DNA of 64,000 nucleotides from a virus: the IMG/VR virus record IMGVR_UViG_3300034107_000273, positions 43,957-107,956 of that record; one strand, 5' to 3'. How positions within the stretch are numbered: position 1 is the first letter of the stretch; each line of letters starts with the position of its first letter. Positions 11,282 to 43,916 of this stretch are shown in pieces. Both the position numbers and the translations under genes were made by a program. The notes below the pieces were generated by a model that ran no database searches, was not told the origin of the DNA, and saw only the letters and a list, made by a program, of their open reading frames with translations.

Positions 11282-11356
11282 AATATTCACTTGGATTTAA
11301 TCATAAGTTTACCAATTATAACAAAAGTATATAGTTTTACACTATATACTATAAGT

Positions 11357-28365: not shown

Positions 28366-29276
28366 TATACTGCTCCAGATACATCATCCGTTACGTTTAA
28401 CATTCCTGTTAGAACTGTATACACTTTATCTGGTGTTTCGCTTTGAGTTAAAAATATTGGAGTTCCACCTGTTGCTGGGTTTCTCCATGTAGAAAAAGTA
28501 TATCCTGATCTTGTAACTATAGGAGCTGTATGTAAAAGACCAATGTCCTTGGTTGTTGAAGTTCCTCCTGTGCCACCATTTGCATCCCAAGTAACCCTGT
28601 ATTGTCCAGCTGGGATAGGTGTTGGTGCATCTGCAGCAGCAACTGCTGAAGTAGCCGAAGAGGTAGCAGTAGCATTGTCTCCAACACCATTACTTGCTGT
28701 AATAACAACTGTAATAGCCTTAGTTAAATCTCCTGAGACAATGGTGTATGTAGGAGAGTTAGTTCCAACGTTACTTCCAGCAGCTTTCCATTGATAAGAT
28801 AGGGTTGGTGTTGGAGAACCAGTAAGTCCAGTTGTACCAGCTGTCAATACTTGTCCTACTTTAGCTGTTCCAGTAATTGTTGCTGTTGAGATTGCAGGAG
28901 CGATGTCAGGTAGAACATCAGCTGTTCCTCCTGTTGCTAGAGGTACAGCATTCCATTGAGCATAAAATGTTATATTCTTATCTGGAGTATAGGTGGTTCC
29001 AGAATCTATTATTTGAACATCATAAAAATAATTACCAGCTGATAAATTTCTTCCAATGTTAGATGGAATTTTGCAAGATATACTAGACAAACCTACCTTT
29101 TGAGCAGTTCCTGTATATTGGGTAGCACCTGCTCCTCTGAAGTTAGCAATCTTAAATGTGTAGGTTTCAAACCCAGAAAGATCAAAGTCACTTCCATCTT
29201 GGTTCTTTACATCAATGCTGAATTCAAATGTATCTCCACGGTAGTACTCAAGGTTGTGAGTTTTTGGGAATGCCAT
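28365..29276 (-). CDS. BppU-N-like virion protein with inserted Ig-like/InlB-B-repeat segment
   Basis: YYRGDT...YFYDVQI...YTVLTG..V scaffold; insert contains AKVGQVLT..YQW and WDANGG..GYTF..W. Confidence 0.6.
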   Translation of the reverse strand: MAFPKTHNLEYYRGDTFEFSIDVKNQDGSDFDLSGFETYTFKIANFRGAGATQYTGTAQKVGLSSISCKIPSNIGRNLSAGNYFYDVQIIDSGTTYTPDKNITFYAQWNAVPLATGGTADVLPDIAPAISTATITGTAKVGQVLTAGTTGLTGSPTPTLSYQWKAAGSNVGTNSPTYTIVSGDLTKAITVVITASNGVGDNATATSSATSAVAAADAPTPIPAGQYRVTWDANGGTGGTSTTKDIGLLHTAPIVTRSGYTFSTWRNPATGGTPIFLTQSETPDKVYTVLTGMLNVTDDVSGAV

Positions 29277-29502
29277 AGTATGTGCCTCTTTTCTTAATTT
29301 ATTATATCATGGTTTAAGTATTTGAAAATTTCGGGGAATATAAATTGATCCTCATAATCCCTATAGTAAATACACTATATCCCCATATGCCCAATAGCCA
29401 AAGAGACGTACCGTTTTTTATAGATCGTAGCCTTTTATATACTCACATTTGTCACATTTTGAGATAATAAAGCTACCCTTGATATAAAGGTTTATAGAGT
29501 GA

Positions 29503-30387
29503 GGTTTGTTATCTAAGCACATATATATATGATAGCATACTGGTTTTACTGGGCTATATATAGGGTTTGAAGGCTTATTTGATACTAGATATGGGGTTTG
29601 AAATGAGAAATAAATCTTACTGACATTTTTTAGATATGGTTTGGGTGGAGGAAAGTGGAGGATAGTGGGTTATTGGGCGCTTATACAGATGGCGTCGTAA
29701 TGTCCACGGCTTTAAAACCTCCTATCATAAAACCTTTCCTTTGTCAAACCTTCTCTTTCTGGCATGGAGTATATCATCCAAACCTCTATTTGTCAAACCT
29801 TTATAGCTTAAAAGCCCTATAAAAAACCTATACAAAACCAGCCGAAATGTCCAATAATATAATAGAAAGGTTTGATAATATTTAAAAAGATATCCAAAAC
29901 CAGGAGAAAAGGTTTGTTATTCTATAGGGAGTAAAAGGTATGTGGTTTGTCTTATATCCCCCGTCAAAAACGGGGACGCTAAAGCGTTGATCGTAATGTC
30001 TGATAGGATTATTAGCGCCTTCTGGCACGGGACTTAAAGAGATATAAGAACTATACCTATAGTAACCAATAGAGTAATAAACCCTGTAGCTATAAATATA
30101 AACAAATCATAGTCTGGTTTGATATCATGTGGATCTTCATGAGAGTGGGTATGCTGAGAAAAACCATCATTAATAAAATATGGTCCACCGTGTTTTGAAA
30201 AATGATTTCTACCCATAAAACCATTATAACATGGTTTGACAAGGATGGTTTGATATGATATAAGCTATGAATCTGGAAAAATATTTGAAGCTTCGTAATG
30301 TCCATGAATCTGGAAAAAATTTTGAATGCTCGTAATGTCTGAAAATGGGAAAAATTTGGACATATCGTAATAAGGTTTGAAGGTTTG
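29503..30387. repeat. cluster of 15 GGTTTG hexamers, 4x TCGTAATGTC and a 37-bp tandem repeat
   Basis: counted by eye in largely non-coding DNA; tandem units start at 30267 and 30304. Confidence 0.75.
30034..30216 (-). CDS. small membrane protein
   Basis: leaderless TGTTATAAT-N6-ATG start, C-terminal TM helix. Confidence 0.6.
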   Translation of the reverse strand: MGRNHFSKHGGPYFINDGFSQHTHSHEDPHDIKPDYDLFIFIATGFITLLVTIGIVLISL

Positions 30388-30446
30388 GATCGGGACCCCT
30401 CGGGCACAACGGCAGGCTTTTGTCAAGCCCACCGCTGGCATCACTA

Positions 30447-30659
30447 TTAGAATAGTTTGTATTGGTTGTAGTTATTGTACCGCTCTTGCATTGTGTGTTC
30501 CGCTGAGTCTGCAATAGTAATTAAACGATTGTAGATTACATTTGGTGATGACTCTGCAAGATACTGCCCTATCAAATCAAGGTCTAACCTTAAGTCTGAT
30601 AGAACATTAGATAGTTGGATTGCTACCTTTTCTTCCTTTGTTACCAGTTTTCGTCTCAT
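30447..30659 (-). CDS. hypothetical protein
   Basis: AAGGAG SD, own promoter. Confidence 0.65.
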   Translation of the reverse strand: MRRKLVTKEEKVAIQLSNVLSDLRLDLDLIGQYLAESSPNVIYNRLITIADSAEHTMQERYNNYNQYKLF

Positions 30660-30741
30660 GGTTCTCCTTCATTTCATTGTACCAAAAATAAGGGGGGAGC
30701 GCAACCCACCACAAATCGCACTCCCCCGTTGCAGCGTTTGT

Positions 30742-31110
30742 TTATACCACTGCGTGCTCAGGCAAATATGCTTGGATAAACTTATCCCATTTGACAGGAA
30801 CATTATCAGTTACTGTCTTGTTAACAAAATCAATGACGACTGTCTGGTCTCCTAAATCATAGTTAGTACCATTAATCGCATAGATTCCAAATCCATGCTC
30901 ATCTAAAATATTATGCTGAATGAGATAACTAATTATCATACGTGTGCCATATGAAGCATCATTCCAACGTGGCTTGGCATGCTCTAGCGCTTGTGCAATA
31001 TCAGTCTCCCATCCAGTCTGGCCCCAGTGACTGTATAGAACAACAGATACGGAGGGCTCTCCTACTGCAGGATCTGAATCTTTAAAAACAAAGTTAATTC
31101 TTGCTCCCAT
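30742..31110 (-). CDS. hypothetical phage protein
   Basis: LYSHWG...RWND motif, GAGGAG SD. Confidence 0.7.
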   Translation of the reverse strand: MGARINFVFKDSDPAVGEPSVSVVLYSHWGQTGWETDIAQALEHAKPRWNDASYGTRMIISYLIQHNILDEHGFGIYAINGTNYDLGDQTVVIDFVNKTVTDNVPVKWDKFIQAYLPEHAVV

Positions 31111-31355
31111 TATTCTTGCTCCTCAATCTCTGTAACTTGTAGTGGAAACCAATCGTATGCATAATCTTCAACATCTTCAGTTAATTCAATACGATTAATC
31201 TCAGCAATTGCAGAGGCTTCATCTTCTGACTCAATCTCAAACTCATAGTAAGTTTCTCTAGTGGCAGTTATTTTGTATAGTGGCATTTTCTTCCTTTTCT
31301 GTAGTAGTTACTTCAATTGTACCAAAATCTAGGGGCAGTGTCAATTCTTCCCACA

Positions 31356-32045
31356 TTAATTGCTCCTGTCGTCATAGGCCTTTTGGTGTGCCTCACACAT
31401 GTCACTGCTCCAGCCACAGTGTGGGCATGGATAGTCTGAACAGTCATCACAGTCAATGATTTGGCTATCCTCATAGGTACCGTCACAATCATTGCATTGG
31501 TTGTCATACATTGACTCACTAATTATCTTACCACGCAAGAGTTCACACTCTCCACCCCAGCCAGTCTCTTCTTCGTATGACAAAGTAAATAATAAATCAG
31601 GGTACTGTTCAGAAAGATTAAGTAGAGCAGGCATTGGACGAGACCATGCTGTATTAAAGTTATAGTGAACAACGTGGTTCTCACCATTGACTGTATCTTC
31701 AACGGTAGTATCAGGGTATTCATTATCTGAAGATACCGCTACATCCCACTTAGTACCCCAGTTACGAACATTCCAGTTATACCAATCATCACCCTCAAAG
31801 GTAATTGGTAGTTCTGGTGTATGTACAGGCTGACTGTCATAGGTATCTAGATTAGTAGGCTTAACAATGTTCCAGAATGCAAAGACAGGGTTTGGATACG
31901 TTACCTGTTGTTTTTCCATTTGATGTGTCTCAGTGCTCCAGTTGTCATGAACACGAACGAATGGTTGATTAAGTTGGTCCATCATTTTCTTGACAGACTC
32001 TGGATTGCCTTCTACAGTTAATCCGTTAAATACCCAGTTTGGCAT
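31356..32045 (-). CDS. DUF1281/YubB ferredoxin-like protein
   Basis: MPNW, WYNWNVRNWGTKWD and FNTAWS motifs. Confidence 0.75.
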   Translation of the reverse strand: MPNWVFNGLTVEGNPESVKKMMDQLNQPFVRVHDNWSTETHQMEKQQVTYPNPVFAFWNIVKPTNLDTYDSQPVHTPELPITFEGDDWYNWNVRNWGTKWDVAVSSDNEYPDTTVEDTVNGENHVVHYNFNTAWSRPMPALLNLSEQYPDLLFTLSYEEETGWGGECELLRGKIISESMYDNQCNDCDGTYEDSQIIDCDDCSDYPCPHCGWSSDMCEAHQKAYDDRSN

Positions 32046-32277
32046 GGTGGTTCTCCTTTATTTGTTGGCGGTCTATACTTAAATTATACGTCAAGCAGTA
32101 TAGGTCTGTCAAGCAGTCTTTGTACCCCTCTGCCCACTGTTTATCTTCAAACTCTTTATCTTGCATTTCATTCATCATATTCTTTAACTCGCCGTGCAGG
32201 ATATCAATTAGAGGAATGCTAAGATCTTCCATAGCACGTTCTAAGTGCTTGGGTAGGAATGGATACTTATCACTCAT
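32026..32277 (-). CDS. hypothetical protein
   Basis: ORF in operon. Confidence 0.6.
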   Translation of the reverse strand: MSDKYPFLPKHLERAMEDLSIPLIDILHGELKNMMNEMQDKEFEDKQWAEGYKDCLTDLYCLTYNLSIDRQQIKENHHAKLGI

Positions 32278-32449
32278 TAATTAACTCCAATACATAGTCG
32301 TATGCGTCAAGGGCACCCATATAGAAATCATCTGACTCCCAATGGTATCCCTCTCCAGGGTCAGCACCTTCTTGTGCTTCTTCCATGTCTTGCTCAACGC
32401 TGATTCTGTGAATTTTTAAGTACTCTCTTAATGTGTTTATGTCCATATA

Positions 32450-32665
32450 TTAATTATAAGGGTTGCTGTTGATTTTGACAAGTTTTGGTGGTGTGATGTT
32501 AGTCACAGGCTCCAGGGTAGGTCCCTTAGCATCTGACTCTTCTAATAGGATAACTATACCCTCACCGTCACAGATGCAGGAAGGCTCTCTAACAAGATCT
32601 GAACAGGCAGTGATTTCAATCAGGGCATCGCAATCAATGCATAGATAATCATACTTAGTCCACAT
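32450..32665 (-). CDS. small Zn-ribbon protein
   Basis: YDYLCIDC...CIC motif. Confidence 0.6.
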   Translation of the reverse strand: MWTKYDYLCIDCDALIEITACSDLVREPSCICDGEGIVILLEESDAKGPTLEPVTNITPPKLVKINSNPYN

Positions 32666-32973
32666 AATCAGTCCTTACATATATCGCATAGGGATTCAAT
32701 ACAACAAATAGATTCAACTGAGCACCAATCGCACCAGTCTTTATTAAGATTACAATTCATTAGTCAAAGTACCCTTCTGCCCATAAGCCCTGGAGGAAAG
32801 AATAGGTTTTAGCCAAACCTTCTCGTAATTGTTCATTAGATGAACTATCATGAGCAAGCCCTACAAAATGGCTCATCTCATCTAAATCTGTTTTAGTATA
32901 ACCTAACATTATTCCTCACATTCACATTTATAGTTTGGGTTTTGGACGGGTATTCTACAAAAAGGATGACATT

Positions 32974-33186
32974 TCATAGTAGGAAATCATCTCCCTCTAT
33001 GTATCCATAGTATTCGTTATACTGTTGTTTTAGTTCAGGTGAGGCATATTGCATAAACATATTTTCTGCATAGTCTTCCCCTTGTTCTAAGTTGTTATTA
33101 GACCATTGGTCAAACAACTCTTCTGCAATTTCCTGTATCATTGCTCCTGTGATGTGTTCTGCTAGTGTGTCTATGAATTGTTCCAT
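32974..33186 (-). CDS. hypothetical acidic protein
   Basis: AGGAG SD followed by ATG. Confidence 0.6.
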   Translation of the reverse strand: MEQFIDTLAEHITGAMIQEIAEELFDQWSNNNLEQGEDYAENMFMQYASPELKQQYNEYYGYIEGDDFLL

Positions 33187-33307
33187 TTTTTCTCCTATGG
33201 TAGTTATGATATTAATTTTACAGGAAAACTGGGAAAAAAGCAACTCCTACGTAATAAAGTTTTTAATGAATGTTTATATTATGTAAAGTGCCCCCGAGCC
33301 GTTTTCC

Positions 33308-33384
33308 TGGCGATCCGTACGAGACTTGAACTCGTGACCTCTACCGTGACAGGGTAGCGCTCTAACCAACTGAGCTAACGGACC
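33308..33384 (-). tRNA. tRNA-Asp(GTC)
   Basis: cloverleaf, loop CTGTCAC, encoded CCA. Confidence 0.93.
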
Positions 33385-33392
33385 AATAAGGT

Positions 33393-33420
33393 GAGCAGTT
33401 TTAAATCTTGCTCAGGATTT
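33393..33420 (-). ncRNA. 3'-UTR pseudoknot element, copy 2
   Basis: AAATC-CT-GAGCA-A-GATTT-AAAAC-TGCTC. Confidence 0.75.
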
Positions 33421-33427
33421 TTTTTAG

Positions 33428-34444
33428 TTATGCAATCTGCATTACGTTTTGCACAACTTTTAGCAAACGATTTTTTTCTGCGTTAATTGCAGGGTCAAAA
33501 CCACTTGCACTAGCAAGAATACTTTCGTTATTCCCACCACGTGCAGAACGATACCAGTCAAGGCGTTCTGTTAGTGCATTGAAAGCACCCCATGCGTTAC
33601 CAGCAATCATGCCGTTAAACTCGCCTGTATAAATGTCGTTAATAACATCTACCTTGTTTTCCCATTTCTTGAAAGCACCCTTTGAGTCCTTTTCAGGCTT
33701 AGGGTATGCAGAAAGGATAATGTCATTGAAAGACTTAGCATTGACTTCTTTTTCAATCATTGCCTTAGCCATGATGTCAAATTCATCCATGTAAGCATTA
33801 GCAAGACCAAGAGTCTGTCGTGCAATAGCAACCTTACCGCTTGCTGTCTGTGTGTGACGTATCTTGAAAGATTGCTTGATACCATTCTTACGCTTTTTCT
33901 GATTAAGTGCAAGATTGAGAGTGTTAGCGCACACAACACGAACAGGTGTAATGCTTGCTTGAATAGCGATAGAGCCGTCATGTGATGTGTTGATAAGTAA
34001 ATAAGTCTTTACCTTATCTGCAACACCGCTAGGGTCTAGAACAGTTTCACGCTCTAGTGCTAGTGCGCCAAATACTACACGACCGCCCTTGATTGAGCCA
34101 GCAGTTTCCCAACGACCTCCGCCGTCTAGAATGTTATCACCAAATGAGAACAAGTCCTCATTCTGCATAACGTGGTAACGCTCACCAACGACACCAAGAA
34201 TGTCTGTCTGAGAGTTGTCAGTAGGATTGGTACGCAATACATACTGATAGTTTTTATCGCTTGTTAAGTGTGATGGAGTTTGCAAATCCTCTAGACGAAC
34301 ATTCCACCCATTGAGGTTAGCAAGAGCCAACATCTCTGATGTGTTTTTTTCCTCTGTAAAGACTGTACCCAATCCATGCCATGCAGGCTCTCTAAATGAA
34401 GCAAAAGAGGTCTTGCCGTTTTGTATTTCTAGGTCATGTGCCAT
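33428..34444 (-). CDS. DUF932 / phage-plasmid TIGR03299-like protein
   Basis: PAWHGLG, ETAGSIKGG, NTSHDGS, TPVRVVCANTL and RHT motifs. Confidence 0.85.
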   Translation of the reverse strand: MAHDLEIQNGKTSFASFREPAWHGLGTVFTEEKNTSEMLALANLNGWNVRLEDLQTPSHLTSDKNYQYVLRTNPTDNSQTDILGVVGERYHVMQNEDLFSFGDNILDGGGRWETAGSIKGGRVVFGALALERETVLDPSGVADKVKTYLLINTSHDGSIAIQASITPVRVVCANTLNLALNQKKRKNGIKQSFKIRHTQTASGKVAIARQTLGLANAYMDEFDIMAKAMIEKEVNAKSFNDIILSAYPKPEKDSKGAFKKWENKVDVINDIYTGEFNGMIAGNAWGAFNALTERLDWYRSARGGNNESILASASGFDPAINAEKNRLLKVVQNVMQIA

Positions 34445-34627
34445 GAGTTTATTTTCCTTTTCTTTTTGTAGTTATTTTAAGTATAGCAGGATAGGCTGAC
34501 AAATGCAAAGCGGGATAGTTAAAAATGGGAAAAAATGGGGATTATTTTAATGTGTCGTAAATCACAGTGTGAGCTTGATCACGCCCCCCGAGCCGCTTTT
34601 TTATGCAACGGCATAAATAAAAATAAG

Positions 34628-34654
34628 GAGCAGTTTTAAAACATGCTCAGGTTT
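34628..34654 (-). ncRNA. 3'-UTR pseudoknot element, copy 3
   Basis: AAAC-CT-GAGCA-T-GTTT-TAAAAC-TGCTC. Confidence 0.75.
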
Positions 34655-34669
34655 ATTAGTAGCCCCCTA

Positions 34670-35101
34670 CTAAATACTTACTCTCTCAATGGAAGAGGAT
34701 AGGTATTGAACTGAGTCTGAACTATAATCAACAGTATCAAAATCAATTTCATGAATTAAGTTTTGTGCCTCTTCTTCATTACGTGCATTAACTGTAATTG
34801 AATACTGAACTTCAACTTCTAGTTCAAATTCTTTTGTTAATTCAAAACCGCAAATGTCTGCAATTTCTTGTGCTTCTGACTCATTAAGCGTACCTGCTTC
34901 AATGGCTTCAAAGGTCCATTCTTGCATTGCTTCTACCATACGATTATGCTCTGCTGCTAAGCCGTATGAACGTTGTGTTACTACGCTGATGTGCTTTTCT
35001 AGTTCATCTATGCGTGTTTTGTTTGATGCTAACTGTGACTCAAGGAATTCTCTTGTCAAGTACATTGGCTTTTCTGTTGTTTCTGTGATTGGTTGGTCCA
35101 T
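34670..35101 (-). CDS. hypothetical protein
   Basis: 143 aa, own promoter and SD. Confidence 0.7.
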   Translation of the reverse strand: MDQPITETTEKPMYLTREFLESQLASNKTRIDELEKHISVVTQRSYGLAAEHNRMVEAMQEWTFEAIEAGTLNESEAQEIADICGFELTKEFELEVEVQYSITVNARNEEEAQNLIHEIDFDTVDYSSDSVQYLSSSIERVSI

Positions 35102-35165
35102 AAGGGCTACCTCTTTCTGTTAGTTGTTTAGTTTAATTGTACTGCAGGGCACTGACAAATGTCAA

Positions 35166-35663
35166 TTACCAAGATGATGCATAAGAAAATGACAACTTAT
35201 CAATTTCTGGTAGGGCAAATAGGCGTTCTAATTGACGGATAGTATTCTTGATATCATTCCAATACCATTCATCAATATCTGTACCACCAAAGAAAAATCC
35301 TGCTTGTGGTGGAAATAGGCTAGGGTCTTTAGTTTCTAGCGCATGCTTACACAGTGCAAGCAATTCTATTAGTTTATCTTGTGAGACATAGTAGTCTCCA
35401 CAGTCATCAATACCATTCTGAACATTCTTGACAAACCAAGCATGTATCTGATTAGCCTTGCGCCAATAAGCACAGGTAACTTCTACACTTGCTCCATAGA
35501 TATCTGTTGCAACATCTGTGAGTTGTGTCAATGCCATTAGGTCATTGAACTTAGGATATACGGCTTCAGGTGATGAATAAGATAATTCATCATTTGCTTG
35601 GAGCGCTTTCCAATTAATTTTTTCTAAATGCTTCTTAGCACTAAGGTACATGTCTAATCCCAT
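35166..35663 (-). CDS. conserved hypothetical phage protein
   Basis: MGLDMYL...YWRKANQIHAWF...GFFFG...YASSW. Confidence 0.75.
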   Translation of the reverse strand: MGLDMYLSAKKHLEKINWKALQANDELSYSSPEAVYPKFNDLMALTQLTDVATDIYGASVEVTCAYWRKANQIHAWFVKNVQNGIDDCGDYYVSQDKLIELLALCKHALETKDPSLFPPQAGFFFGGTDIDEWYWNDIKNTIRQLERLFALPEIDKLSFSYASSW

Positions 35664-35806
35664 GGGGGCTTCCTTCTTTCTGTTGTTCTGATATTAATAT
35701 AATTCTAGCAGGTTGGACTGACAAATGCCAATCGTAAATCCTGGGATCTTAAATAGTGGTACGTAAAGGGTGTGATTAAATTCACATGAGCTCGGGGGCA
35801 AAAAGT

Positions 35807-35833
35807 GAACAGTTTTAATTCATGTTCAGGAAT
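35807..35833 (-). ncRNA. pseudoknot element, copy 4
   Basis: ATTC-CT-GAACA-T-GAAT-TAAAAC-TGTTC (compensatory change in stem 2). Confidence 0.75.
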
Positions 35834-35869
35834 GCACCGCCTCGCTATAGCACTGGCAGTAACTTTGTT

Positions 35870-35896
35870 GAGCAGTTTTGCAACCTACTCAGGTTG
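35870..35896 (-). ncRNA. pseudoknot element, copy 5
   Basis: CAAC-CT-GAGTA-G-GTTG-CAAAAC-TGCTC. Confidence 0.75.
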
Positions 35897-35931
35897 TTTG
35901 GGTTCAGGACTTTAATTGCCTCCCAAATTAT

Positions 35932-36354
35932 TTAGAGATAACGAGCAACCGCATTGTAAGTGCTTGTGCTAACTACTTCCTCATCTGTCATCTTTAGGAT
36001 ACGAATAGCATTAGAGATTTCCTCTTTCTGCTCACGATAGTTATAAACAGAGATTGACTCAAAATCCCTCTCAGGCTCTTTAGGTAAATCCTTGTCTGAT
36101 ACTGTTAGGTCGTAGTCAATGTTGAGAGTGTTGTTCCAGTTGCGATAGTTAGTGCGAAAGTTTTCAGCCTTCTTGATGTTAGCAACCGCATAGTCGCTAA
36201 TCTCTTTCTGCCAAGCCTTACGCAACTTTTCATACTTTGCTTCGTTTGCTTCTTGTGATGCGTAGTCTGCTTCTAGTTTAGCAAGTGCTACTTCTAGTGC
36301 CTTGATTACCTTTGGTGTTGCTATCTTTACTGAGATTGCTTTTTGACGTGCCAT
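35932..36354 (-). CDS. hypothetical protein
   Basis: 140-aa helical ORF with own promoter. Confidence 0.7.
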   Translation of the reverse strand: MARQKAISVKIATPKVIKALEVALAKLEADYASQEANEAKYEKLRKAWQKEISDYAVANIKKAENFRTNYRNWNNTLNIDYDLTVSDKDLPKEPERDFESISVYNYREQKEEISNAIRILKMTDEEVVSTSTYNAVARYL

Positions 36355-36419
36355 GTGTTTTTCTCTTTTCTTTGGTGGGTTATTTATAGTATAGGGGTTG
36401 GGTGTGACATTTTTAGTGT

Positions 36420-36446
36420 GAGCAGTTTTAATTCATACTCAGGAAT
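36420..36446 (-). ncRNA. pseudoknot element, copy 6
   Basis: ATTC-CT-GAGTA-T-GAAT-TAAAAC-TGCTC. Confidence 0.75.
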
Positions 36447-36460
36447 AAGCAATTAACTAG

Positions 36461-36628
36461 TTACGCTTGGGCTTTCCATGTTGTCCAGCGTGTGTTGCCA
36501 TTAACGTCTAACTTAACACGAACTGTATCCTTTGATGTTGGTGCGATTTCAAGGATTGTTCCTGTTACCTTTGACTTTTGTGATGTGTAGAGGTCGCCTA
36601 CCTTGTATGTGTTTGTTGCTACTGTCAT
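36461..36628 (-). CDS. small SH3-like beta protein
   Basis: YKVGD...GTILEI pattern, AAGGAG SD. Confidence 0.6.
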   Translation of the reverse strand: MTVATNTYKVGDLYTSQKSKVTGTILEIAPTSKDTVRVKLDVNGNTRWTTWKAQA

Positions 36629-36815
36629 TTTATTTCTCCTTTTTAGTTTGTTGTATGTATTAAGTATAACATTTCCCACTGACATTTTTCAACTCCATTT
36701 CTGTTATTTCTCACTATTTGAGACGCTTGCGGGTGTGATGTAGGTCACTATTGGTAAATCAGGAACACTAATAGGGCTATTATGAATAGCGGAATTATGC
36801 TTTCCATTTATCTCC

Positions 36816-37538
36816 TTACTTTTTACTTGATGAGAATACAACGTCACTCTTTGAGTATACACAAAGTGAGCAAGAAACGCAAGCGGAGCCTTGTTGAGAG
36901 ATTAGGGGAATGGCTTTTTTATTCTCAGGACACTTTGCCCCTACCTTGCCAATCATCTCTTTCATGTCTGCTTGTCCTACTTGAAAGTTTTTTGCGAGGT
37001 ATGCAAGACGAATACCATGATCTGTTTTAAGACCAATACCTATAGCCTTGTTTTCGCTATCTGTAGAATAGTATAAAGATAGATTAGGAATATCTTTAAG
37101 CATTACCGCTGCACTCTTCACTCTTGTATAAACCCAGAATTGAATTTCAGGATTATTAAGGATGACATGCTTCCATGCGAATGTATAAGTATCATTAAAG
37201 AAGTCGCCGTCCCAATGAATACGGAATAGCATAGGGGCTTCACGCTTTACACAATCAGCCTTGAAGTCTGCAATCATCTCTTCAAGCAATGCTTCAATAG
37301 TATCATGATCAGCGTCTTTAACTAATTCCCAATTATGTAATAGGTTTTTCTTTACTGTTGGGAATACCTTTTCCAATTTGCCTGCATAGCAAACACTCTC
37401 GCAGACACTCGTTGCGCCAGGACATGAATAGTTTTTTCCTGCAGGTAGTCCAAAGGTGTTGGCGATACTTGCTTGTTTTCCATTAGGGGTGACGGCATTA
37501 GCGACCTTTCTGTCTTTGCTTCTGAGTAGTTTAGTCAT
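36816..37538 (-). CDS. Gp88-like Cys-motif (radical-SAM-related) phage protein
   Basis: CPGATSVCESVCYA, FRIHWDGDF and WVYTR motifs, C-terminal CxxCxxC. Confidence 0.7.
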   Translation of the reverse strand: MTKLLRSKDRKVANAVTPNGKQASIANTFGLPAGKNYSCPGATSVCESVCYAGKLEKVFPTVKKNLLHNWELVKDADHDTIEALLEEMIADFKADCVKREAPMLFRIHWDGDFFNDTYTFAWKHVILNNPEIQFWVYTRVKSAAVMLKDIPNLSLYYSTDSENKAIGIGLKTDHGIRLAYLAKNFQVGQADMKEMIGKVGAKCPENKKAIPLISQQGSACVSCSLCVYSKSDVVFSSSKK

Positions 37539-37767
37539 GGTGGGTTACTCGCTTTCTTTCTTTAATTTTAGCATTTGGGACTGACATTTTTTTCTATTGT
37601 ATTTCTTTTTATTTGGAACAGCTGAGGCTGCATTAGAACGGCGAAGTTCCATTAACCTTCTTAATTCCTCAGAATTTTTCTTCATAACTTAATCTTATCA
37701 GAAATGGGAAAAAATATCAAATCTCTTAAATGTGATCAATCTCACAGGGCCCCCTCGGGCCGTTTTT

Positions 37768-38001
37768 TCAATCTAAATAAACGTACCAATCAACTTCATC
37801 ATCAAATGCAAACTGAACAATTTCTGATTCACCAAAATCATTTGTTATTTGAATGTCATAGTTATCTCCTGTTGAATCACTTTCAATAAAAGTAATTTCA
37901 ACAATCTCATCACCATAACCAATTAGATCCCCAATCTGTAGTGCATCTACAGTTAGCGAATCTGCTTTGACTAGTTCCATGTCAATCATTGTAGCACTCA
38001 T
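37768..38001 (-). CDS. hypothetical acidic protein
   Basis: LQIGD beta-rich ORF. Confidence 0.6.
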   Translation of the reverse strand: MSATMIDMELVKADSLTVDALQIGDLIGYGDEIVEITFIESDSTGDNYDIQITNDFGESEIVQFAFDDEVDWYVYLD

Positions 38002-38142
38002 TTAGATAAACTCCGCTAAATCTCTATCCATTATTTCATTCATGTCCACTCCTTGAGTTTCTGCTATGGCTTCCCATAGGTCTGATTCTGTATAGTTTCC
38101 ATCAGGATACCATTCTGCTAAAAGTGAGTATAAGTCTGTCAT

Positions 38143-38466
38143 TTATTCTAATCCCAATCCTAATTCATAGCCTGCATCTTCTTCCCAATAGTCTGCCTCA
38201 TCTTGTGGCAACCATGGGTCTAAGTGGTGTTGTTCAATAATTGCAAACGCTGGAGCGTGGCTCATTCCCTTATAGAATACTCCGTCTGGCATCGCAATCT
38301 GGCGCATGGCATCATTTTCATGGTATGCGTCAATAGCATCTATGCAAGGCTGAACCATGCTTAGTGGTACTGGTGGATAGTGATTACCTTGTAAGTGATA
38401 ACCAATAGCCTGTTCAAGTGTTATGTCTAGGTTTTCTGCTAAGTCCATCGCTGTATTGTATCCCAT
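38143..38466 (-). CDS. hypothetical protein
   Basis: HLQGNHYPPVP...HHLDPW motif. Confidence 0.7.
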   Translation of the reverse strand: MGYNTAMDLAENLDITLEQAIGYHLQGNHYPPVPLSMVQPCIDAIDAYHENDAMRQIAMPDGVFYKGMSHAPAFAIIEQHHLDPWLPQDEADYWEEDAGYELGLGLE

Positions 38467-38684
38467 TATCGTGTTACCACCATTCCTGTTTTGTAGAAAG
38501 TTTTTGTGTGCATTTTGCCTGAAGGTTCAGACAAGTTAATTGTTGAGTATTCATTAGCAAGTCCATGGTCAATAAACTTTTGATAAACTTCAACGGCAGA
38601 TAGGCAATCGCTATAACGACCAACCCAAGTAGTAGTAGGGTCTGAGTCATAGGTACAAGTGACTGAGTATAGGTATTCGTTCAT
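38466..38684 (-). CDS. hypothetical protein
   Basis: coupled ORF. Confidence 0.6.
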   Translation of the reverse strand: MNEYLYSVTCTYDSDPTTTWVGRYSDCLSAVEVYQKFIDHGLANEYSTINLSEPSGKMHTKTFYKTGMVVTR

Positions 38685-38875
38685 TAGTTATTCTCCTTAT
38701 AGTTTTCGTTCATTATACTTTCAGCATACCATGCACAGTATTCATTTTCAAGCGACACGCCCTTGTTGCAATCGCAAAATTCTGAGTCGTATTCCTCGCC
38801 ACCATTACCAAAAAAGAGGACACCCTCATCATGGCAATCAACGCAATCAACCAAAAAGTCTAGTAAGTTTCCCAT
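38684..38875 (-). CDS. small Cys-rich protein
   Basis: CxxC...CxC motif. Confidence 0.6.
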   Translation of the reverse strand: MGNLLDFLVDCVDCHDEGVLFFGNGGEEYDSEFCDCNKGVSLENEYCAWYAESIMNENYKENN

Positions 38876-38879
38876 TTAT

Positions 38880-39089
38880 TTATTCTCCAATCTTTACGGC
38901 TACTGTAGCCCAAAAGTCTTTTATGCCACGTGTTGGCGATACCTGAATTGCATACGCCTCAAAGTCTGAGCCGTACCAAACTGAGTCACGCTTTTCAGCA
39001 TGAACAACAACACCCTCATCATGGCGAGAGTGTGAGCGATAGTATTTTCCTACTAGTAGGCTTTCTATTGTATAAGGTTTTGCTGACAT
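38880..39089 (-). CDS. hypothetical protein
   Basis: SD and promoter upstream. Confidence 0.6.
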   Translation of the reverse strand: MSAKPYTIESLLVGKYYRSHSRHDEGVVVHAEKRDSVWYGSDFEAYAIQVSPTRGIKDFWATVAVKIGE

Positions 39090-39284
39090 TAGCAACCTGC
39101 TTTCTTTTTGTTTATTTAACTTATTACTCTGTAATCCTATCATGCGAGGCAGACAAAAAACTAATTACTAGCGAGTAATCTTAAATAGTGAGACGCTCAG
39201 AAAATGTGAGAAAAATCACAACCACGTAAAGTTATCCACAAGAGCCTGTGGAAAACCCCCCGAGCTTTTTTATTTGAAAAGATC

Positions 39285-39311
39285 AAGCAGTTTTAAAACT
39301 TGCTTAGGTTT
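39285..39311 (-). ncRNA. pseudoknot element, copy 7
   Basis: AAAC-CT-AAGCA-A-GTTT-TAAAAC-TGCTT (compensatory change in stem 2). Confidence 0.75.
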
Positions 39312-39317
39312 TTTATT

Positions 39318-39524
39318 TTATTTTAGTAAAGCGTGTAATTCTGGCAGTTGGCAAATTTCTTTTGTGCAAGCATCATAGAATTTATTTTCATCAAATCTAG
39401 GATTGTCTGCACTGAACCATTCACTGAATTCAAAAATTAAATCTTGAAAAGTTTTTAATTCAATTTCATTTGCAAACTGATTTAGAATTTTTGCAGTTTC
39501 AACGTAGTCTTTACGTGTCATCAT
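39318..39524 (-). CDS. hypothetical phage protein
   Basis: TRKDY...DNPRFD..KF..AC motif. Confidence 0.7.
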   Translation of the reverse strand: MMTRKDYVETAKILNQFANEIELKTFQDLIFEFSEWFSADNPRFDENKFYDACTKEICQLPELHALLK

Positions 39525-39684
39525 TATAGGCTCACCAATTTTTCTACATAGTGTGAAATTTGATTGTATGCATTAGCGCATTGATAACAATAAGTCTCAG
39601 TAGGAATTCCACCAAGCATTAGCGCATCAATTCCTGAATAAACCAACTCTGTTGAGTTGCAATTAATTACTTGACACTCTTTCA

Positions 39685-39888
39685 TTATTCTGCCACCTTT
39701 AGAATTGCGTATGAGCCATTTTTATTTATTTCATCAAGAATAGGTTGCAAGCGTGAGCCAACCAATTCCTTTAGCATTTCTTCAAGCATTTGGACTTGCT
39801 CTTGCTTAGGAAGTGCAGCCATTGCCAGTGTGATAGGGTGTCCTGATTTGAATTCTGTTACGAATTTTAGATTATGTTCAACGTTCAT
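39685..39888 (-). CDS. hypothetical protein
   Basis: ORF in module. Confidence 0.6.
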   Translation of the reverse strand: MNVEHNLKFVTEFKSGHPITLAMAALPKQEQVQMLEEMLKELVGSRLQPILDEINKNGSYAILKVAE

Positions 39889-39907
39889 TTATTTTATTTC
39901 CTATTCT

Positions 39908-40105
39908 TTAGTTTGAGTTAGTAAGTGTGCGAGTGCCACGTAGTGTTCCTGTAACACCTAGGGCATCACAAGATAGTTTTACAGATACGCCAACAGGTAA
40001 TTGTGTTGGGTATTGTGAGATGAATTGAGCAACAGCACCTTGTGAGGCGAAGTTGATTTTTTTTGTTGAACCTGAAAAGGTTTCTAGTGTTACAGTGTAA
40101 GTCAT
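39908..40105 (-). CDS. hypothetical protein
   Basis: AAAGGGAG SD, TGTCAG promoter. Confidence 0.65.
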   Translation of the reverse strand: MTYTVTLETFSGSTKKINFASQGAVAQFISQYPTQLPVGVSVKLSCDALGVTGTLRGTRTLTNSN

Positions 40106-41940
40106 TAAGTGACTCCCTTTCGTTTGTTTGATAAGACTATCTTACCATTTGGGGCTGACAAATTAGGGCATTTATTTGCTAGGCTCATTGTGATTTGCAT
40201 CACACTTATTTGCTAGGCTCACTGCCTTATTTATCTTTATTTAATTGTTATACCTACAAGGGTACCAGATAAGTTTCAGGAAGTCAAAACGACACGCCGT
40301 AAAATGGGAAAAAATTTGTGTGACCTTAAACACATAAGTTATACACAGCCTGTGGAAAACGCCTCGGGCCGTTTTTTATGCATGGATCTGAATTTTTATA
40401 AATTAGATTTCCAATAAATAAAACCAAACACAATCATTGCAATCATTACAACCAACATTTTTTATTCTCTTTCTAATTCTGTGTAATCAACAACAACAAA
40501 ATCAAGTCGTTCCAATGGAATAACTTTTAACCAAGATAGTGCAGACTCAAAGTTATCATCCTCAATGGTGACGGATAAATCAAAATTAAAAACTGGCATT
40601 ATTTATTCTCCTTATAAAGAAAGTCCCACGCCTTACGGCATAACACAATTGAATTGCAATTGTCACAACAGATAACACCATGCTCATTTAATTCTAAATC
40701 ATACATGTCAATCATGGCAGTTACTGCACCACATACAGATTTTACAGGCACATAGGTACTCATTATTTCTCACACTCACATTCTAAAGCAGATAGGTCAA
40801 AGTCGCAATGCTTGCAACCTTGAAACAAAAAGTGTTCATTGCAATAAATTGCAGTTTGCATTTCCTCGCAACACAAGAATTGTTTTGTGCCACGCAAAAA
40901 GACATTTGTTAAAGACATAGGGAAAAGGACAAGTGTAGGGGTACTCATTAGTTACTCACATACCAATCTGTCCATGTAGGGAATTGTTCAGGGTCACTAT
41001 CATAGTAGTAACGCTCAATGTTATTTTCACAATCCATGCAGAAAGTAAATTGTTCATCTCCAATTTCAGAGATAGCGGAAAGCATAGGTTTATGCTCATG
41101 TGTTTTTGTTAATGTAGTCATTTTATGACCACCTTTCTTTAGCGGATTTCTTTACCACTTTTATTTTCTTATACTGCAAGTATAGCCTATAAGTCTGACA
41201 TTTATCAACCTACTAGCCAGTAATTCCAGATAGTGAGACGCTCAAGTAATGTGATAAAGGACACACTTACTTAAAGTTATCCACAGAAGTTATCCACAGG
41301 CGCCCCGAGCAAAAAATCGCAGCTTTTTATTTCTGCGATCTTTTTTTATTTATAAATTACTTTGCGAATAAATAAAACCAAAAACAATAAATGCAATCAT
41401 CACAACTAACAATTTATTTCTCCTCAATTTCATCTAGTAGATCCCATAGTGCAGTTTCTAATTCTTTAGAAACTAAATCTAATTTTTCTTGTAGTGTTTT
41501 CATTCTGCATTCTCCAATTCATTTATGTCTGCGACATAGACATTGTTTTTATTTATTCCATAGTTTAATTGGAATTCAAATACAGTGATAGCCTCATCAT
41601 AGGAATCAGCCTCAACGTTTATGAAAGTATTAAATTCAAATGTAGCCATTCTTTATTCTCCCTTTATAGTGTTTTTCCGCAGTGGTTACAAGGTTTTCCT
41701 TGGTGGTCTATGCTAAGGGCATCATAGTTTGTGCCCTTCCAACAATGGTGGCATACGATTACAAAGTCCATTATTCTGTTACCGCCTTATCTGTTATCAT
41801 TTTAAGAATTAACTGTAACTGTTCTGTAGTTAGTAGTGCTTGAGCGCAACCCCAAGCAAATGAAAGCGCAAGCGCACTATCTCCATAGTGCTCATTAGCA
41901 AGAGTGTTTATCTCTTGCGTTATCTCAAAATTAGTTTTCA

Positions 41941-42036
41941 TTATTTATTTTCTTCTTTCTTTAGTAGTGATAGGGCAAGGGCAAGACTTTGCTTGCGCTG
42001 GGCTTCTACGTGAGCCTTGTATTCTTCAAGTGTCAT
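41941..42036 (-). CDS. 31-aa peptide, paralog of 42625-42720
   Basis: MTLEEYKAHVEAQRKQSLALALSLLKKEENK, GAAAGG SD. Confidence 0.65.
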   Translation of the reverse strand: MTLEEYKAHVEAQRKQSLALALSLLKKEENK

Positions 42037-42287
42037 TTATCTGACCTTTCTTTTTCTTTATACTGTAATTGTAGCATGGGGGTCTGACAAATTGGGGGAT
42101 ATCCATGGGCGTGTCGTAGAATTATTTTTGTGATGTTGGTCACAAACGGCCCGAGCAAAATTTGCAGCTGTTACACTGCAAATCTTTTTTTACTTATTGC
42201 CAAACATGTTAAATATTTCATCAACCTGTTCATCAGTTAAGTGATCTAACTGAATTGCTTTTTCAAATTCAAAGAAATCTTTTTCCA

Positions 42288-42482
42288 TTATTCTGTTTCC
42301 TCGTTTTCTTCTAGTGCATCTTGAAAGTCATAGAGTGCCTCATTGTATGCGATTGGGTCGCACTCTTTTAGTATTTGCGAAGGGTAAAAAGTTAATTGTC
42401 CTATAGTTACAACAGGATAAGAATCATCTAGCATTTCATCAAATAATTCTTTACTAGCGAAAGCCATTTCAAAATCTAACAT
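42288..42482 (-). CDS. hypothetical acidic protein
   Basis: FDEMLDD...PSQILKECDPIAY. Confidence 0.65.
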   Translation of the reverse strand: MLDFEMAFASKELFDEMLDDSYPVVTIGQLTFYPSQILKECDPIAYNEALYDFQDALEENEETE

Positions 42483-42628
42483 TAGTTTTCTTCTTTCTGT
42501 AGTAGGTAAGTATTAGTTAGGGAACGATTATTATTTGAGAACATAGACTCTATAACCGCTTTATCTTTTAGTGATTGAGCAATTCTTTTATCTTGTTGCT
42601 CTTTTAGAATTCTATCAAATGTGCTCAT
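42482..42628 (-). CDS. 48-aa protein, paralog of 43458-43604
   Basis: MSTFDRILKEQQDKRIAQSLKDKAVIESMFSN...KEEN. Confidence 0.65.
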   Translation of the reverse strand: MSTFDRILKEQQDKRIAQSLKDKAVIESMFSNNNRSLTNTYLLQKEEN

Positions 42629-42720
42629 TTGTCTGAGCCTTTCTTTAGTAGGGACATGGCTTGCAAGGTGCTTGCCTTGCGTTGCGCCTCAACGTGCGCC
42701 TTGTATTCTTCTAGTGTCAT
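42625..42720 (-). CDS. 31-aa peptide, paralog of 41941-42036
   Basis: MTLEEYKAHVEAQRKASTLQAMSLLKKGSDK. Confidence 0.65.
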   Translation of the reverse strand: MTLEEYKAHVEAQRKASTLQAMSLLKKGSDK

Positions 42721-43457
42721 TTATTTAACGACCTTTCTTGTTGTTTATACTAGCAATTCTAGCATGGGGGTCTGACAAATTAGCCTATTTGTTAGGGTGT
42801 GTCGTGTGTGACCTTAGTCACGCCACAGGAATGGATTACCTGTAGCCTCATAGCCGTCACGCCATGAACAGCGAGGATAGACAGTGTGACTAGAAACATA
42901 GCCACACTCTGGGCAGATAACGTTTGCTAGTCGTGAGCGCATGGTTTCATAGCCCTCTGCATTTCTATTTTCAAACAGTGAGTTCATTTGGAACTCCTTT
43001 CTTTATTTTCTTTATACTAGTATTCTAGCACCTACCACTGACAAATTTGGAGATTTTTTGGGCGTGTCGTAGAACTATTTTTGTGATCCTCATCACATGG
43101 CCCCCGAGGCGTGTGAGCGACATCACATGCGACACGCCGTGTTTAGATTTGCTTTTGTCAGTCCTAACTGTTATACTTGCAGTATTAGATAGTTAAAGTA
43201 TAACTACTAAACGAAAGGTCACTAACATGAACCCATTTACAGCACTACAAGATTTCCTAGATGAGAATGTCGCTTACGGACTAATTGGAGCCTTCATAGG
43301 CGTAGCAGTAGCCGTTATCCTATGCCTTACGCTTGGAGCGTGACACACATCACACAACGCCAACGGCGTGTCGCCTTGACTTTTCAGGGTATGTATGATA
43401 CCCTTACAGGTATAACAATTAAATAAGATTAACTAACTAACAAGAAAGGTGTTCAGA

Positions 43458-43604
43458 ATGAATACACTAGAAAGAATACAGAAAGAGCAAGCAGAAAAGC
43501 GTGCTATACAATCTATCAAGGACAAGGCTATTGTTGCCTCAATGTTTTCTAATACAAATCGTCCATTAAACAATCAGTACCTACTAGGTAAAGAGGAAAA
43601 CTAA
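43458..43604 (+). CDS. 48-aa protein, paralog of 42482-42628
   Basis: MNTLERIQKEQAEKRAIQSIKDKAIVASMFSN...KEEN, GAAAGG SD. Confidence 0.65.
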   Translation: MNTLERIQKEQAEKRAIQSIKDKAIVASMFSNTNRPLNNQYLLGKEEN

Positions 43605-43721
43605 GTGTTTATTATTGACATGATTACAAATTTTATTGAAGAGTACGCTATGGTTATAGTTATCTCATCAGTATGCATTATCCCTACTATTATCTACTAC
43701 ATCAACAATTAAGGAAAACTA

Positions 43722-43916
43722 ATGTCACTATCACTAATAAACAAAATCAATGTTGGAAAACTGTTTATCTCCAACGACCATATGTATCTTGTTAAAGAGG
43801 TATTAGAGGTAAATGATGAACACGAATCAGTAACTGCAACACTTACTAACTATAAAGGTGAGGAAGTGTTTTTTTGTGGTGGGTTTTCTCAATGGTTTGA
43901 AGGGTTGGTTAAATAA
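43722..43916 (+). CDS. hypothetical protein
   Basis: AAGGA SD followed by ATG. Confidence 0.6.
   Translation: MSLSLINKINVGKLFISNDHMYLVKEVLEVNDEHESVTATLTNYKGEEVFFCGGFSQWFEGLVK

Follow-up and report, generated by a model that had tools for sequence, protein, structure and literature searches.

The spacers of a 13-kb block of small leftward genes in a lake phage carry conserved look-alikes of host CRP, DnaA and PafBC sites, so the phage probably couples its first genes to the state of its host. The window (the whole stretch of DNA analysed) comprised 64 000 nucleotides, positions 43,957 to 107,956 of IMG/VR record IMGVR_UViG_3300034107_000273, and all coordinates below refer to it. Judged from the sequence, the chances are about even that this is an early ('host-takeover') block of an actinobacterial phage linked to host Crp, PafBC and DnaA. 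The phage is probably an abundant, uncultured lake phage of actinobacteria, with a host among the freshwater low-GC Actinobacteria. It encodes WhiB, and its PstS gene has its best match in Ca. Planktophila; these two genes point to Nanopelagicaceae as the likely host family. Nanopelagicales (acI) belong to the most abundant bacteria of fresh water; to our knowledge, their phages are almost unstudied.

On the minus strand the block (window 30399-43354) was read as a chain of 10-11 units holding about 45 small genes, mostly of unknown family. Within a unit the order is genes, hairpin or terminator, CCCGAG/CTCGGG site, boxes, promoter and the next genes. This modular order, claimed in the first-pass annotation, was seen at 10 of 10 CYCGRG sites, each directly after a terminator or hairpin. 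The 10 CYCGRG copies of the whole 107,956-bp genome all lie in the block (1.1 expected in order-3 Markov simulations). The degenerate spelling of the site was too wide: CCCGAG, CTCGGG or CCCGGG occur, CTCGAG never. The elements of the block were located as follows.

30399, 33293, 34587, 35791, 37754, 39259, 40363, 41304, 42150 and 43103 (span 30399..43108): ten CCCGAG/CTCGGG junction sites
43060..43140: divergent control region at the upstream end of the block
39315-39277, 36446-36418, 35900-35862, 35837-35799, 34658-34620 and 33423-33385, minus strand: six copies (33385..39315) of the RNA hairpin CCU-GAGCA-N6-(U)AAAAC-UGCUC, just 3' of genes
30693..30727, minus strand: strong intrinsic terminator with a 16-bp stem and a T run, preceding the last small gene
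42183-42160 and about 41345-41311: further intrinsic terminators
33428..34444, minus strand: DUF932 gene, 338 aa, homologue of Jay2Jay gp5
36816..37538, minus strand: GP88-family gene, 240 aa, homologue of Jay2Jay gp10
33308..33384, minus strand: tRNA-Asp, between a hairpin and a CTCGGG site

Two promoters are served by the control region, one at 43043 directed leftward and one at 43156 directed rightward. Its elements are, in order, GGCGTGTCG, a CRP box (43112-43127), CTCGGG (43103-43108), a second CRP box (43082-43097) and CGACACGCC (43061-43069). The RNA hairpin had no match in Rfam. In the relatives it was counted 229 times in the forward orientation and 0 times in reverse, and compensatory stem variants were present.

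The relatives were 80 related lake-phage contigs with 74-83% DNA identity. The same kind of block was present in 80 of 80, and at least 384 related IMG/VR stretches encode a relative of the block's DUF932 protein, whose gene is the most conserved in the block. The CYCGRG-type site is absent from 38 of the 80. CRP-type, TTATCCACA and CGACACGCC boxes were found at 13-120 times expectation in these contigs; CRP and GACACGCC boxes are confined to -9 kb to +3 kb around the DUF932 gene, and TTATCCACA has one extra cluster 4-6 kb downstream of it. Enrichment over the rest of the genome and conservation in relatives, both proposed earlier as checks, were borne out. The motifs are concentrated in the block above Markov expectation (TTATCCACA alone only across relatives), and the boxes are kept and, bar the one TTATCCACA cluster, restricted to the block.

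The early promoters are, by their geometry, of the PafBC-dependent type, which the first-pass annotation had missed.

43016..43046, minus strand: first leftward early promoter, ATTTGTCAGTGG-N7-TGCTAGAAT, of the TGTCAG-N10-TAnnnT type
42777, 42089, 41200, 40160, 37586, 36684, 36409, 35723, 35157 and 34501, minus strand: further promoters of this type

About 13 such promoters lie in the block, so the transcription units outnumber the ten CYCGRG-bounded modules. TGTCA-N11-TAnnnT gave 606 matches on the transcribed strand; the opposite strand gave 113, and other spacings about 50. The gap of 11 bp between TGTCA and TAnnnT replaces the 17-bp promoter gap claimed before: a conserved hexamer 17 bp upstream of the -10 was not found at early promoters, and canonical promoters with 16-18-bp spacing were not enriched (52 versus 54.7 expected). 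The consensus is A.tTGTCAG.ccc...tg.TA.aaT, with a -10 that is often TGn-extended. The published PafBC consensus is tGTCgg(N10)tA(N3)T (PMC8635444), and PafBC-dependent (RecA-NDp) promoters of Actinobacteria are read by sigma adaptation (PMC8635444, PMC6789036, PMC11804915). Both sets share tGTC(a/g)g-N10-tAnnnT, in which GTC is invariant and a -10 but no -35 element is present. The phage promoters differ in standing about 13 in a row, on a phage, before genes other than DNA-repair genes. The bases after TGTCAG are also more variable than in host matches: host-family matches are enriched for TGTCRGTG, and the host-like GTG is often missing from the phage promoters. Five host genes behind such motifs were looked up, and none showed a clear DNA-repair function. 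An adjacent WYL pair (PafB/PafC) was present in 3 of 3 host-family genomes.

Palindromic boxes of the CRP type accompany these promoters.

32492, 35771, 37731, 39205, 40189, 42129, 43082 and 43112: eight perfect CRP-type boxes
34551, 34568, 36734, 40319, 41250, 42807 and 43339: seven one-mismatch CRP-type boxes

All eight perfect copies of TGTGA-N6-TCACA in the whole 107,956-bp genome are in the block, where order-3 Markov simulations predict 0.03 for the genome. With up to one mismatch, 17 were counted in the window, 15 of them at 32492-43354 (3.2 expected for the whole window). The relatives hold 358 copies of the palindrome versus 3 expected, at 79 of 80 loci. The consensus over 288 unique sites is TGTGAt.ta.ATCACA; its half-sites are conserved and the N6 spacer drifts. 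The CRP/GlxR match claimed for these boxes was upheld by this consensus, including the T6/A11 preference known from CRP/GlxR sites, and by a matching Crp in the inferred host family. That family has one Crp (227 aa, adjoining nth; E 5.5e-78 to Mtb CRP 3d0s). Its recognition helix, GASRETVNKALADFA, is of the R-E-x-x-x-K/R type and identical to that of M. tuberculosis CRP; the rest of the helix-turn-helix departs from the mycobacterial one by a single Leu-for-Ile change. In 16 host-family genomes almost no perfect TGTGA-N6-TCACA was seen, and sites with one mismatch reached only about 1.5 times the control. This suggests that the host regulon is small and the phage sites unusually perfect.

Box centres peak at -64.5, -74.5 and -85.5 from an assumed promoter start. 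The helical phasing gave a Rayleigh p of about 1e-20 for 218 sites and of about 0.001 after collapse to 16 sequence clusters; related sequences are not independent samples. Within one cluster the centre alternates between -74.5 and -85.5, one helical turn. Class I CRP promoters (E. coli lac P1) and the Crp/GlxR sites of Mycobacterium and Corynebacterium share the 16-bp palindrome and the T6/A11 preference, and class I centres are likewise upstream and one helical turn apart. In E. coli they lie at -61.5, -72.5 and -82.5, an offset of 2-3 bp from the phage values, for which the start is assumed. Class I sites work with a -35 promoter, whereas the phage sites are paired with a -26-element promoter; most chromosomal sites also match the palindrome less well than those of the phage, which are perfect or nearly so.

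DnaA-type boxes occupy three successive spacers.

39232..41298: full span of the DnaA-type boxes
39232/39247: inverted pair
40339/40351: inverted pair, imperfect
41277/41290: direct pair

The block holds three of the four genome copies of TTATCCACA (4 exact versus 1.2 expected in order-3 Markov simulations). At up to one mismatch 25 were counted in the window versus 24 expected, which alone is not significant; significance is reached only across the relatives (413 versus 27 expected, 77 of 80 loci). The DnaA assignment made earlier stands in part: TTATCCACA is enriched in relatives and flanks dnaA in the inferred host family, and its count in the window alone is not significant. Genomes of the Nanopelagicaceae family have groups of 3-5 exact TTATCCACA boxes on the flanks of dnaA; some of these boxes form pairs, spaced 10-11 bp there and 11-13 bp in the phage. 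Other boxes are also concentrated in the block: CGACACGCC (5 of 6 genome copies, the sixth at 43365, just outside), AAATGGGAAAAA (3 of 4, the fourth at 30343), TGAGACGC (3 of 4) and TACTAGCnAGTAA (2 of 2). For GACACGCC, 0.6 copies are expected in the genome (order-3 Markov simulations), and the relatives hold 253 versus 19 expected. The WhiA assignment proved weak, although WhiA is present in the host family. WhiA recognises an asymmetric GACAC that precedes the -35 and may lie on either strand (PMC10243135). Only this 5-base core matches, and bare GACAC is only 1.6 times denser inside the block than outside. What is conserved is the 11-mer CGACACGCCgt, which occurs on either strand and at no preferred distance.

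These observations can be assembled into a mechanism. Hairpins and terminators would cut the early genes into short units, and host RNA polymerase would restart at the roughly 13 promoters with a -10, TGTCAG at -26 and no -35, a layout that host SigA could read together with the activator PafBC. Nearly all of these promoters are preceded, on the helix face of the polymerase, by a predicted high-affinity Crp/GlxR-type site, from which bound host Crp would boost or gate transcription in the manner of class I CRP promoters. Pairs of host-type DnaA boxes and other conserved boxes are present in some of the spacers as well. We infer that the host factors bind and activate at these sites; the helical phasing of the CRP boxes speaks for the coupling of early genes to host state that the first-pass annotation proposed. 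Cyanophage promoters contain NtcA sites and Pho boxes, and DnaA stimulates lambda pR. The principle would be the same, a lytic phage setting host global-regulator sites before its own genes, but here different host-type sites are combined within spacers and repeated over the whole early block. If host Crp, PafBC and DnaA drive the block, it would give a clear example from nature of several host global regulators being read together by one lytic phage. In that case it would further offer a ready set of strong, compact, regulator-dependent promoters for organisms without genetic tools, and PafBC sigma adaptation would extend beyond DNA repair to phage takeover.

By its sequence the phage is a virulent-type, distant relative of the Streptomyces cluster BE phages (Stanwilliamsviridae), with a TerL 53% identical to the BE-phage TerL over the full length. 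BE phages carry DUF932 and GP88 genes inside a direct terminal repeat of about 11 kb (PMC5764925), and homologues of both genes occur twice per BE genome, within the repeat. From this homology we infer that the block likely also lies inside a long terminal repeat. The assembly contains the block once. Related contigs can be closed into circles, with end repeats in two (G020, G021) and a terminal overlap in one (G018); this fits both a collapsed repeat and circular permutation. In the Jay2Jay/BE repeat, the order and strand of the DUF932 and GP88-family genes match those seen here. Many small leftward genes and spacers of 90-250 bp with repeated palindromes, terminators and promoters are likewise present. 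However, only these 2 genes are common to both, and GC is 50% in the BE phages versus 37% here.

Bacillus phage SPO1 has a host-takeover module in its terminal redundancy and T5 a pre-early region in its terminal repeat. Like the present block, these regions of about 10-13 kb consist of very small early genes without a known family, arranged in numerous short operons that have terminators and strong promoters for host polymerase; they lie in a long terminal repeat, which here is predicted from homology. They have no sequence homology to the present block, and their early promoters are canonical sigma-A/sigma-70. We know of no description of SPO1 or T5 early promoters preceded by arrays of host global-regulator sites. 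The terminal redundancy of SPO1 is 13.2 kb (size quoted in PMC5764925). With more doubt than confidence, a fuller scheme can be proposed. A widespread lake phage would fire its whole first gene set through PafBC, the DNA-damage activator of the host, which senses single-stranded DNA. cAMP-Crp would gate each promoter from the phased site, and some units would have DnaA boxes taken from the host origin. The start of infection would then depend on the DNA, energy and replication state of a slow-growing, oligotrophic cell, with no early promoter of the phage's own design. With a long terminal repeat, either end of the virion DNA would bear these genes, and whichever end is injected first would bring them in.

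Alternatively, the boxes may be operators for the phage's own proteins, early products or injected ones, and their likeness to CRP, DnaA and PafBC sites convergence or coincidence; we consider this unlikely. The spacers of Jay2Jay have the same modular layout with another palindrome (GTGTCCGGGCCCGACAC / TGTCCGGGCCGGACA) and no CRP or TTATCCACA boxes, as would fit co-evolving phage regulators. A small DNA-binding protein could hide among the mostly family-less genes, although no DNA-binding family was found among 30 proteins from the block and its right flank. GTGAGCCTAGCAAATAA, TTGAGCGTCTCAC and ATTACTnGCTAGTAAT are conserved and had no host candidate among the regulators considered. On the other hand, the 16-mer is the exact consensus of a host-family regulator with an identical recognition helix, and the 9-mer is the host oriC box, including its 10-11-bp pairing. 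Moreover, no Crp, cNMP-binding or WYL-domain protein is encoded in the phage genome, and the sites lie upstream of the promoters, not over them as shut-off operators do. Even if the boxes were phage operators, the block would still be a well-defined host-takeover module for mining small inhibitors of actinobacterial functions.

It is quite improbable that the spacer cassettes (terminator, junction and promoter) are chiefly homology patches for the shuffling of early genes, with the boxes as passengers. Gene content does change at spacers, a point raised earlier as a check on module borders: about 15 of 79 loci have the 165-aa gene at 35166-35663, and 50-70 have both its neighbours. At unit borders CCCGAG/CTCGGG is found in either orientation, and among lineages its presence is all-or-none. 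Alignments end in spacers in 46% of cases versus 26% expected, a share inflated by the faster divergence of non-coding DNA. Conserved half-sites around a free spacer, together with the phasing, indicate protein binding, and recombination and regulation are compatible roles. In T4-type phages, PeSL (promoter-early stem-loop) cassettes flank small variable early genes. These are likewise repeated promoter-plus-hairpin cassettes where gene content differs between relatives, with other sequences and in another host clade; the recombination role is putative here.

Very doubtful is the earlier suggestion of a sponge that would titrate Crp, DnaA and further global regulators of the host and thereby switch off host programmes instead of regulating phage genes: 15 near-consensus CRP boxes lie in 11 kb while host-family genomes are almost without perfect sites, and DnaA boxes titrate DnaA at datA of E. 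coli, but no evidence of its own was found for it, the sites stand one or two per promoter with no dense arrays, and a decoy needs no fixed helical phase, which here is kept even across one-turn insertions or deletions and favours action at promoters.

The stretch just downstream of the block was also inspected.

29276..30447: flanking stretch of about 1.2 kb, mostly non-coding

It is a candidate origin or genome end. It is dense in CAAACC/GGTTTG (15 of the 76 copies in the genome) and in GACATTACGA (4 of 5), and the matching flank of the relatives carries 2-3 extra TGTGGATAA boxes, 11 bp apart.

The minus-strand early region of small genes at window 30399-43354 (the block) is best read as a host-takeover block in which a phased site for host Crp would serve each PafBC-type promoter, with DnaA-type and unassigned boxes added in some units. 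All eight genome copies of the perfect CRP-type palindrome (TGTGA-N6-TCACA) and all ten of the junction site CYCGRG lie inside the block, and the other boxes listed in the first-pass annotation are also concentrated there. Order-3 Markov simulations of the genome gave chance counts of 0.03 for the palindrome, 1.1 for CYCGRG, 1.2 for the DnaA-type 9-mer TTATCCACA and 0.6 for GACACGCC; against this expectation, the proposed motif enrichment over a composition-matched background was borne out for the palindrome and CYCGRG. On the minus strand, every CYCGRG was found in the same order: intrinsic terminator or conserved hairpin, CYCGRG, boxes, promoter. With this constant order and the concentration of motifs, the modular build described by the first-pass annotation is real. 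Its figure of about ten holds for the modules bounded by junction sites, but transcription units are more numerous, with about 13 promoters. CYCGRG was present only as CCCGAG, CTCGGG and CCCGGG, in both orientations. A role as part of a constant hairpin was rejected (it holds at 37754 only), as was a restriction site avoided elsewhere: base composition predicts about 30 copies but the order-3 model about one, hence no avoidance signal. In the literature, no account was found of actinophages with PafBC-type or CRP-type sites in their early regions.

The window covers the final 64 kb of a 107,956-bp IMG/VR virus record, and the GC content of the phage DNA is about 37%. Over its full length, the large terminase shares 53% identity with those of Streptomyces cluster BE phages (family Stanwilliamsviridae). 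Because of this likeness, a WhiB gene and a PstS-like gene closest to Ca. Planktophila, we infer a phage of freshwater low-GC Actinobacteria, with a host probably in the Nanopelagicaceae. Nanopelagicales have been brought into culture, and related phage isolates are available (PMC10202952). The WhiB gene and the PstS-like phosphate-binding gene (36% identity to its best match) are carried outside the block. Near-identical phage records were searched for and none was found. A protein search of IMG/VR retrieved 384 stretches encoding a relative of the DUF932 protein of the block; the best 80 of these 384 (L005-L084) were examined as relatives, with 74-83% identity in alignable DNA.

Features of the block and its surroundings (window coordinates)
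11267-12400 and 17908-18081, plus strand: PstS-like and WhiB genes
29276-30447: mostly non-coding, repeat-rich stretch (about 1.2 kb) directly downstream of the block
33206-33245 and 37692-37720, minus strand: canonical-looking promoters with TTTTTCCCAnTTT in the 17-bp spacer (TTGCTT-17-TAAAAT and TTGATA-17-TAAGAT)
33385-39315: six copies of an RNA hairpin
34501 to 43043, minus strand: 12 PafBC-type promoter sites
43156, plus strand: one divergent PafBC-type site, opposite the first early promoter
43156-43916, plus strand: divergent rightward unit
About 43218-43340, plus strand: gene for a hydrophobic peptide of about 40 aa, in the rightward unit
43339-43372: a further GACACGCC box and a one-mismatch CRP box, after the peptide gene
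44566-44763, right flank: DUF6171 gene

A canonical -35/-10 model (16-18-bp spacer; TTGTCA-17-TAnnnT) was rejected: it provided a promoter for only one third of the CRP boxes and gave no excess in a consensus scan, and canonical promoters were not enriched in the region. In the relatives, the arrangement TGTCA-N11-TAnnnT matched 606 times on the transcribed strand, against about 50 at other spacings and 113 on the other strand. This is the layout of the published PafBC consensus, tGTCgg(N10)tA(N3)T, with -26 and -10 elements and no -35 (PMC8635444). Such promoters are read by RNAP-SigA via 'sigma adaptation' once PafBC has bound single-stranded DNA (PMC8635444; PMC11804915). PafB and PafC are encoded as an adjacent pair in the host family; no WYL protein was found in the phage. 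About one third of the TGTCRG-N10-TAnnnT matches in host-family genomes continue with GTG, as in RecA-NDp. The genes behind five host PafBC-type motifs identified no repair regulon and are uninformative on function.

With at most one mismatch, 15 CRP-type boxes were counted between 32492 and 43354 (3.2 expected for the whole window). The match of the palindrome to the CRP/GlxR consensus extends to the T6/A11 preference of CRP/GlxR sites, also present in the phage sites, and the inferred host family has a candidate reader. One Crp is encoded in a Planktophila genome, adjoining nth as in mycobacteria (E 5.5e-78 to M. tuberculosis CRP). The recognition helices of the two proteins are identical, and the rest of the helix-turn-helix differs by a single Leu-for-Ile change. 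No phage-encoded Crp or cNMP-binding protein was found. Measured from the -10 of the closest PafBC-type promoter downstream, the centres of the CRP boxes peaked at -64.5, -74.5 and -85.5. This 10.5-bp periodicity persisted after 150 unique spacers were collapsed to 16 sequence clusters (Rayleigh p ~0.001), and within one cluster some variants are centred at -74.5 and others at -85.5, a shift of one helical turn. A box-bound protein, here host Crp, would be turned towards the polymerase in the manner of class I CRP promoters, whose sites are likewise helically phased with polymerase. Since phasing is the signature of a polymerase-facing protein, it argues against a pure decoy, and the suggestion of a DNA sponge titrating global regulators is disfavoured. 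Perfect CRP sites were nearly absent from 16 host-family genomes and one-mismatch sites reached about 1.5x the control, which indicates a small and imperfect host Crp regulon and unusually strong phage sites. The one-mismatch site CGTGAAGGTATTCACA, observed in three Nanopelagicaceae-family genomes (G003:C1:145188, G005:C1:1512 and G011:C1:592276), is probably a genuine member of this very small regulon.

The DnaA assignment was sustained in part, that of WhiA hardly. DnaA-type boxes are paired in three successive spacers of the block, but the TTATCCACA 9-mer alone is not significant in the window. Exact copies of TTATCCACA form clusters flanking dnaA on either side in host-family genomes, some of them as pairs 10-11 bp apart. 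The phages share this low-GC box form and similar pairs, and the box is enriched in the relatives, which would fit recognition by host DnaA. For WhiA, a host WhiA and the phage WhiB are present and the GACAC core alone matches the WhiA site; the density of bare GACAC in the block is 1.6x that outside it. What is conserved is a longer box (CGACACGCCgt), which occurs on either strand at no fixed distance. WhiA sites lack symmetry and vary in position (PMC10243135). The CGACACGCCgt boxes are doubtful predicted WhiA sites.

Conservation in the 80 relatives held for three of the motifs and was partial for others. Observed and expected counts were 358 and 3 for the palindrome (present in 79 of 80 loci), 413 and 27 for TTATCCACA, and 253 and 19 for GACACGCC. 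All three were confined to the same block, within about 9 kb on the upstream side and 3 kb on the downstream side of the DUF932 gene, except for an extra TTATCCACA cluster 4-6 kb downstream. AAATGGGAAAAA was weakly conserved (16 vs 3.7 expected, in 11 of 80 loci) and CYCGRG was missing from 38 of the 80. Across orthologous spacers, conservation is strongest in the promoter and the hairpin; both CRP half-sites are retained, and the six bases between them drift. TGAGCGTCTCA and TACTAGCnAGTAA are parts of one spacer type common to many relatives, and there are further conserved boxes beyond those first listed, e.g. GTGAGCCTAGCAAATAA flanking a CRP box. A fixed promoter distance was looked for with the GACACGCC, DnaA and CYCGRG boxes and none was found. 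In at least two units, AAATGGGAAAAA sits within the spacer of another promoter; the two canonical-looking promoters carrying TTTTTCCCAnTTT, the reverse of AAATGGGAAAAA, may form a second promoter class.

A Pfam search covered 30 proteins encoded in the block and in its right flank. Only DUF932, GP88, DUF1281_C and DUF6171 were matched, and no DNA-binding family was found among them. Relatives differ mosaically in gene content, and alignments break in spacers more often than expected (46% vs 26%), in line with the predicted swapping at module borders, although faster non-coding drift contributes. The Rfam search returned tRNA as its sole match. The hairpin, CCU-GAGCA-N6-(U)AAAAC-UGCUC, lies directly 3' of genes. 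Its copies in the relatives, 229 in number, are all on the transcribed strand, and paired changes in the stem (AAGCA/TGCTT, GAACA/TGTTC) compensate each other. The hairpin, which has no match in Rfam and is often followed immediately by a tRNA gene, may serve in processing or termination.

That the block belongs to a long terminal repeat, as had been proposed, has somewhat better than even chances, judging from the terminase similarity and from Jay2Jay (L003), a Streptomyces cluster BE phage. Its terminal repeat is 11,438 bp in the database record and 10,778 bp in the announcement paper. Only two homologues of block genes, DUF932 and GP88-family, were found in Jay2Jay; both lie in the repeat, in the same order and strand. 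The repeat has the modular build of the block but a different repeated palindrome, so the build is older than the particular boxes. This palindrome (GTGTCCGGGCCCGACAC / TGTCCGGGCCGGACA) is present in at least ten copies in the spacers of L003:1-11438, adjoining GGGCCCCGAAGGGCCC terminators and a promoter-like TAGACT cassette that is itself repeated.

Contig ends of relatives were rejected as a proxy for genome ends, as a collapsed repeat leaves no assembly-graph branch. They are scattered across the block, with no more than a loose cluster at 29.3-30.45 kb, around which 11 of 30 incomplete related contigs end. The 118,084-bp record G018 (of L046), labelled linear in IMG/VR, has ends overlapping by about 1.3 kb inside the early block, and the related records G020 and G021 are flagged with end repeats. 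These assemblies thus form closed circles of about 108-116 kb, which is uninformative on a terminal repeat. The stretch at 29276-30447 holds 15 of the 76 genome CAAACC/GGTTTG hexamers and four of the five GACATTACGA copies. In its counterpart in relatives there are two to three TGTGGATAA boxes at 11-bp spacing, which resembles the host origin. The stretch is a candidate for a replication origin or a physical genome end.
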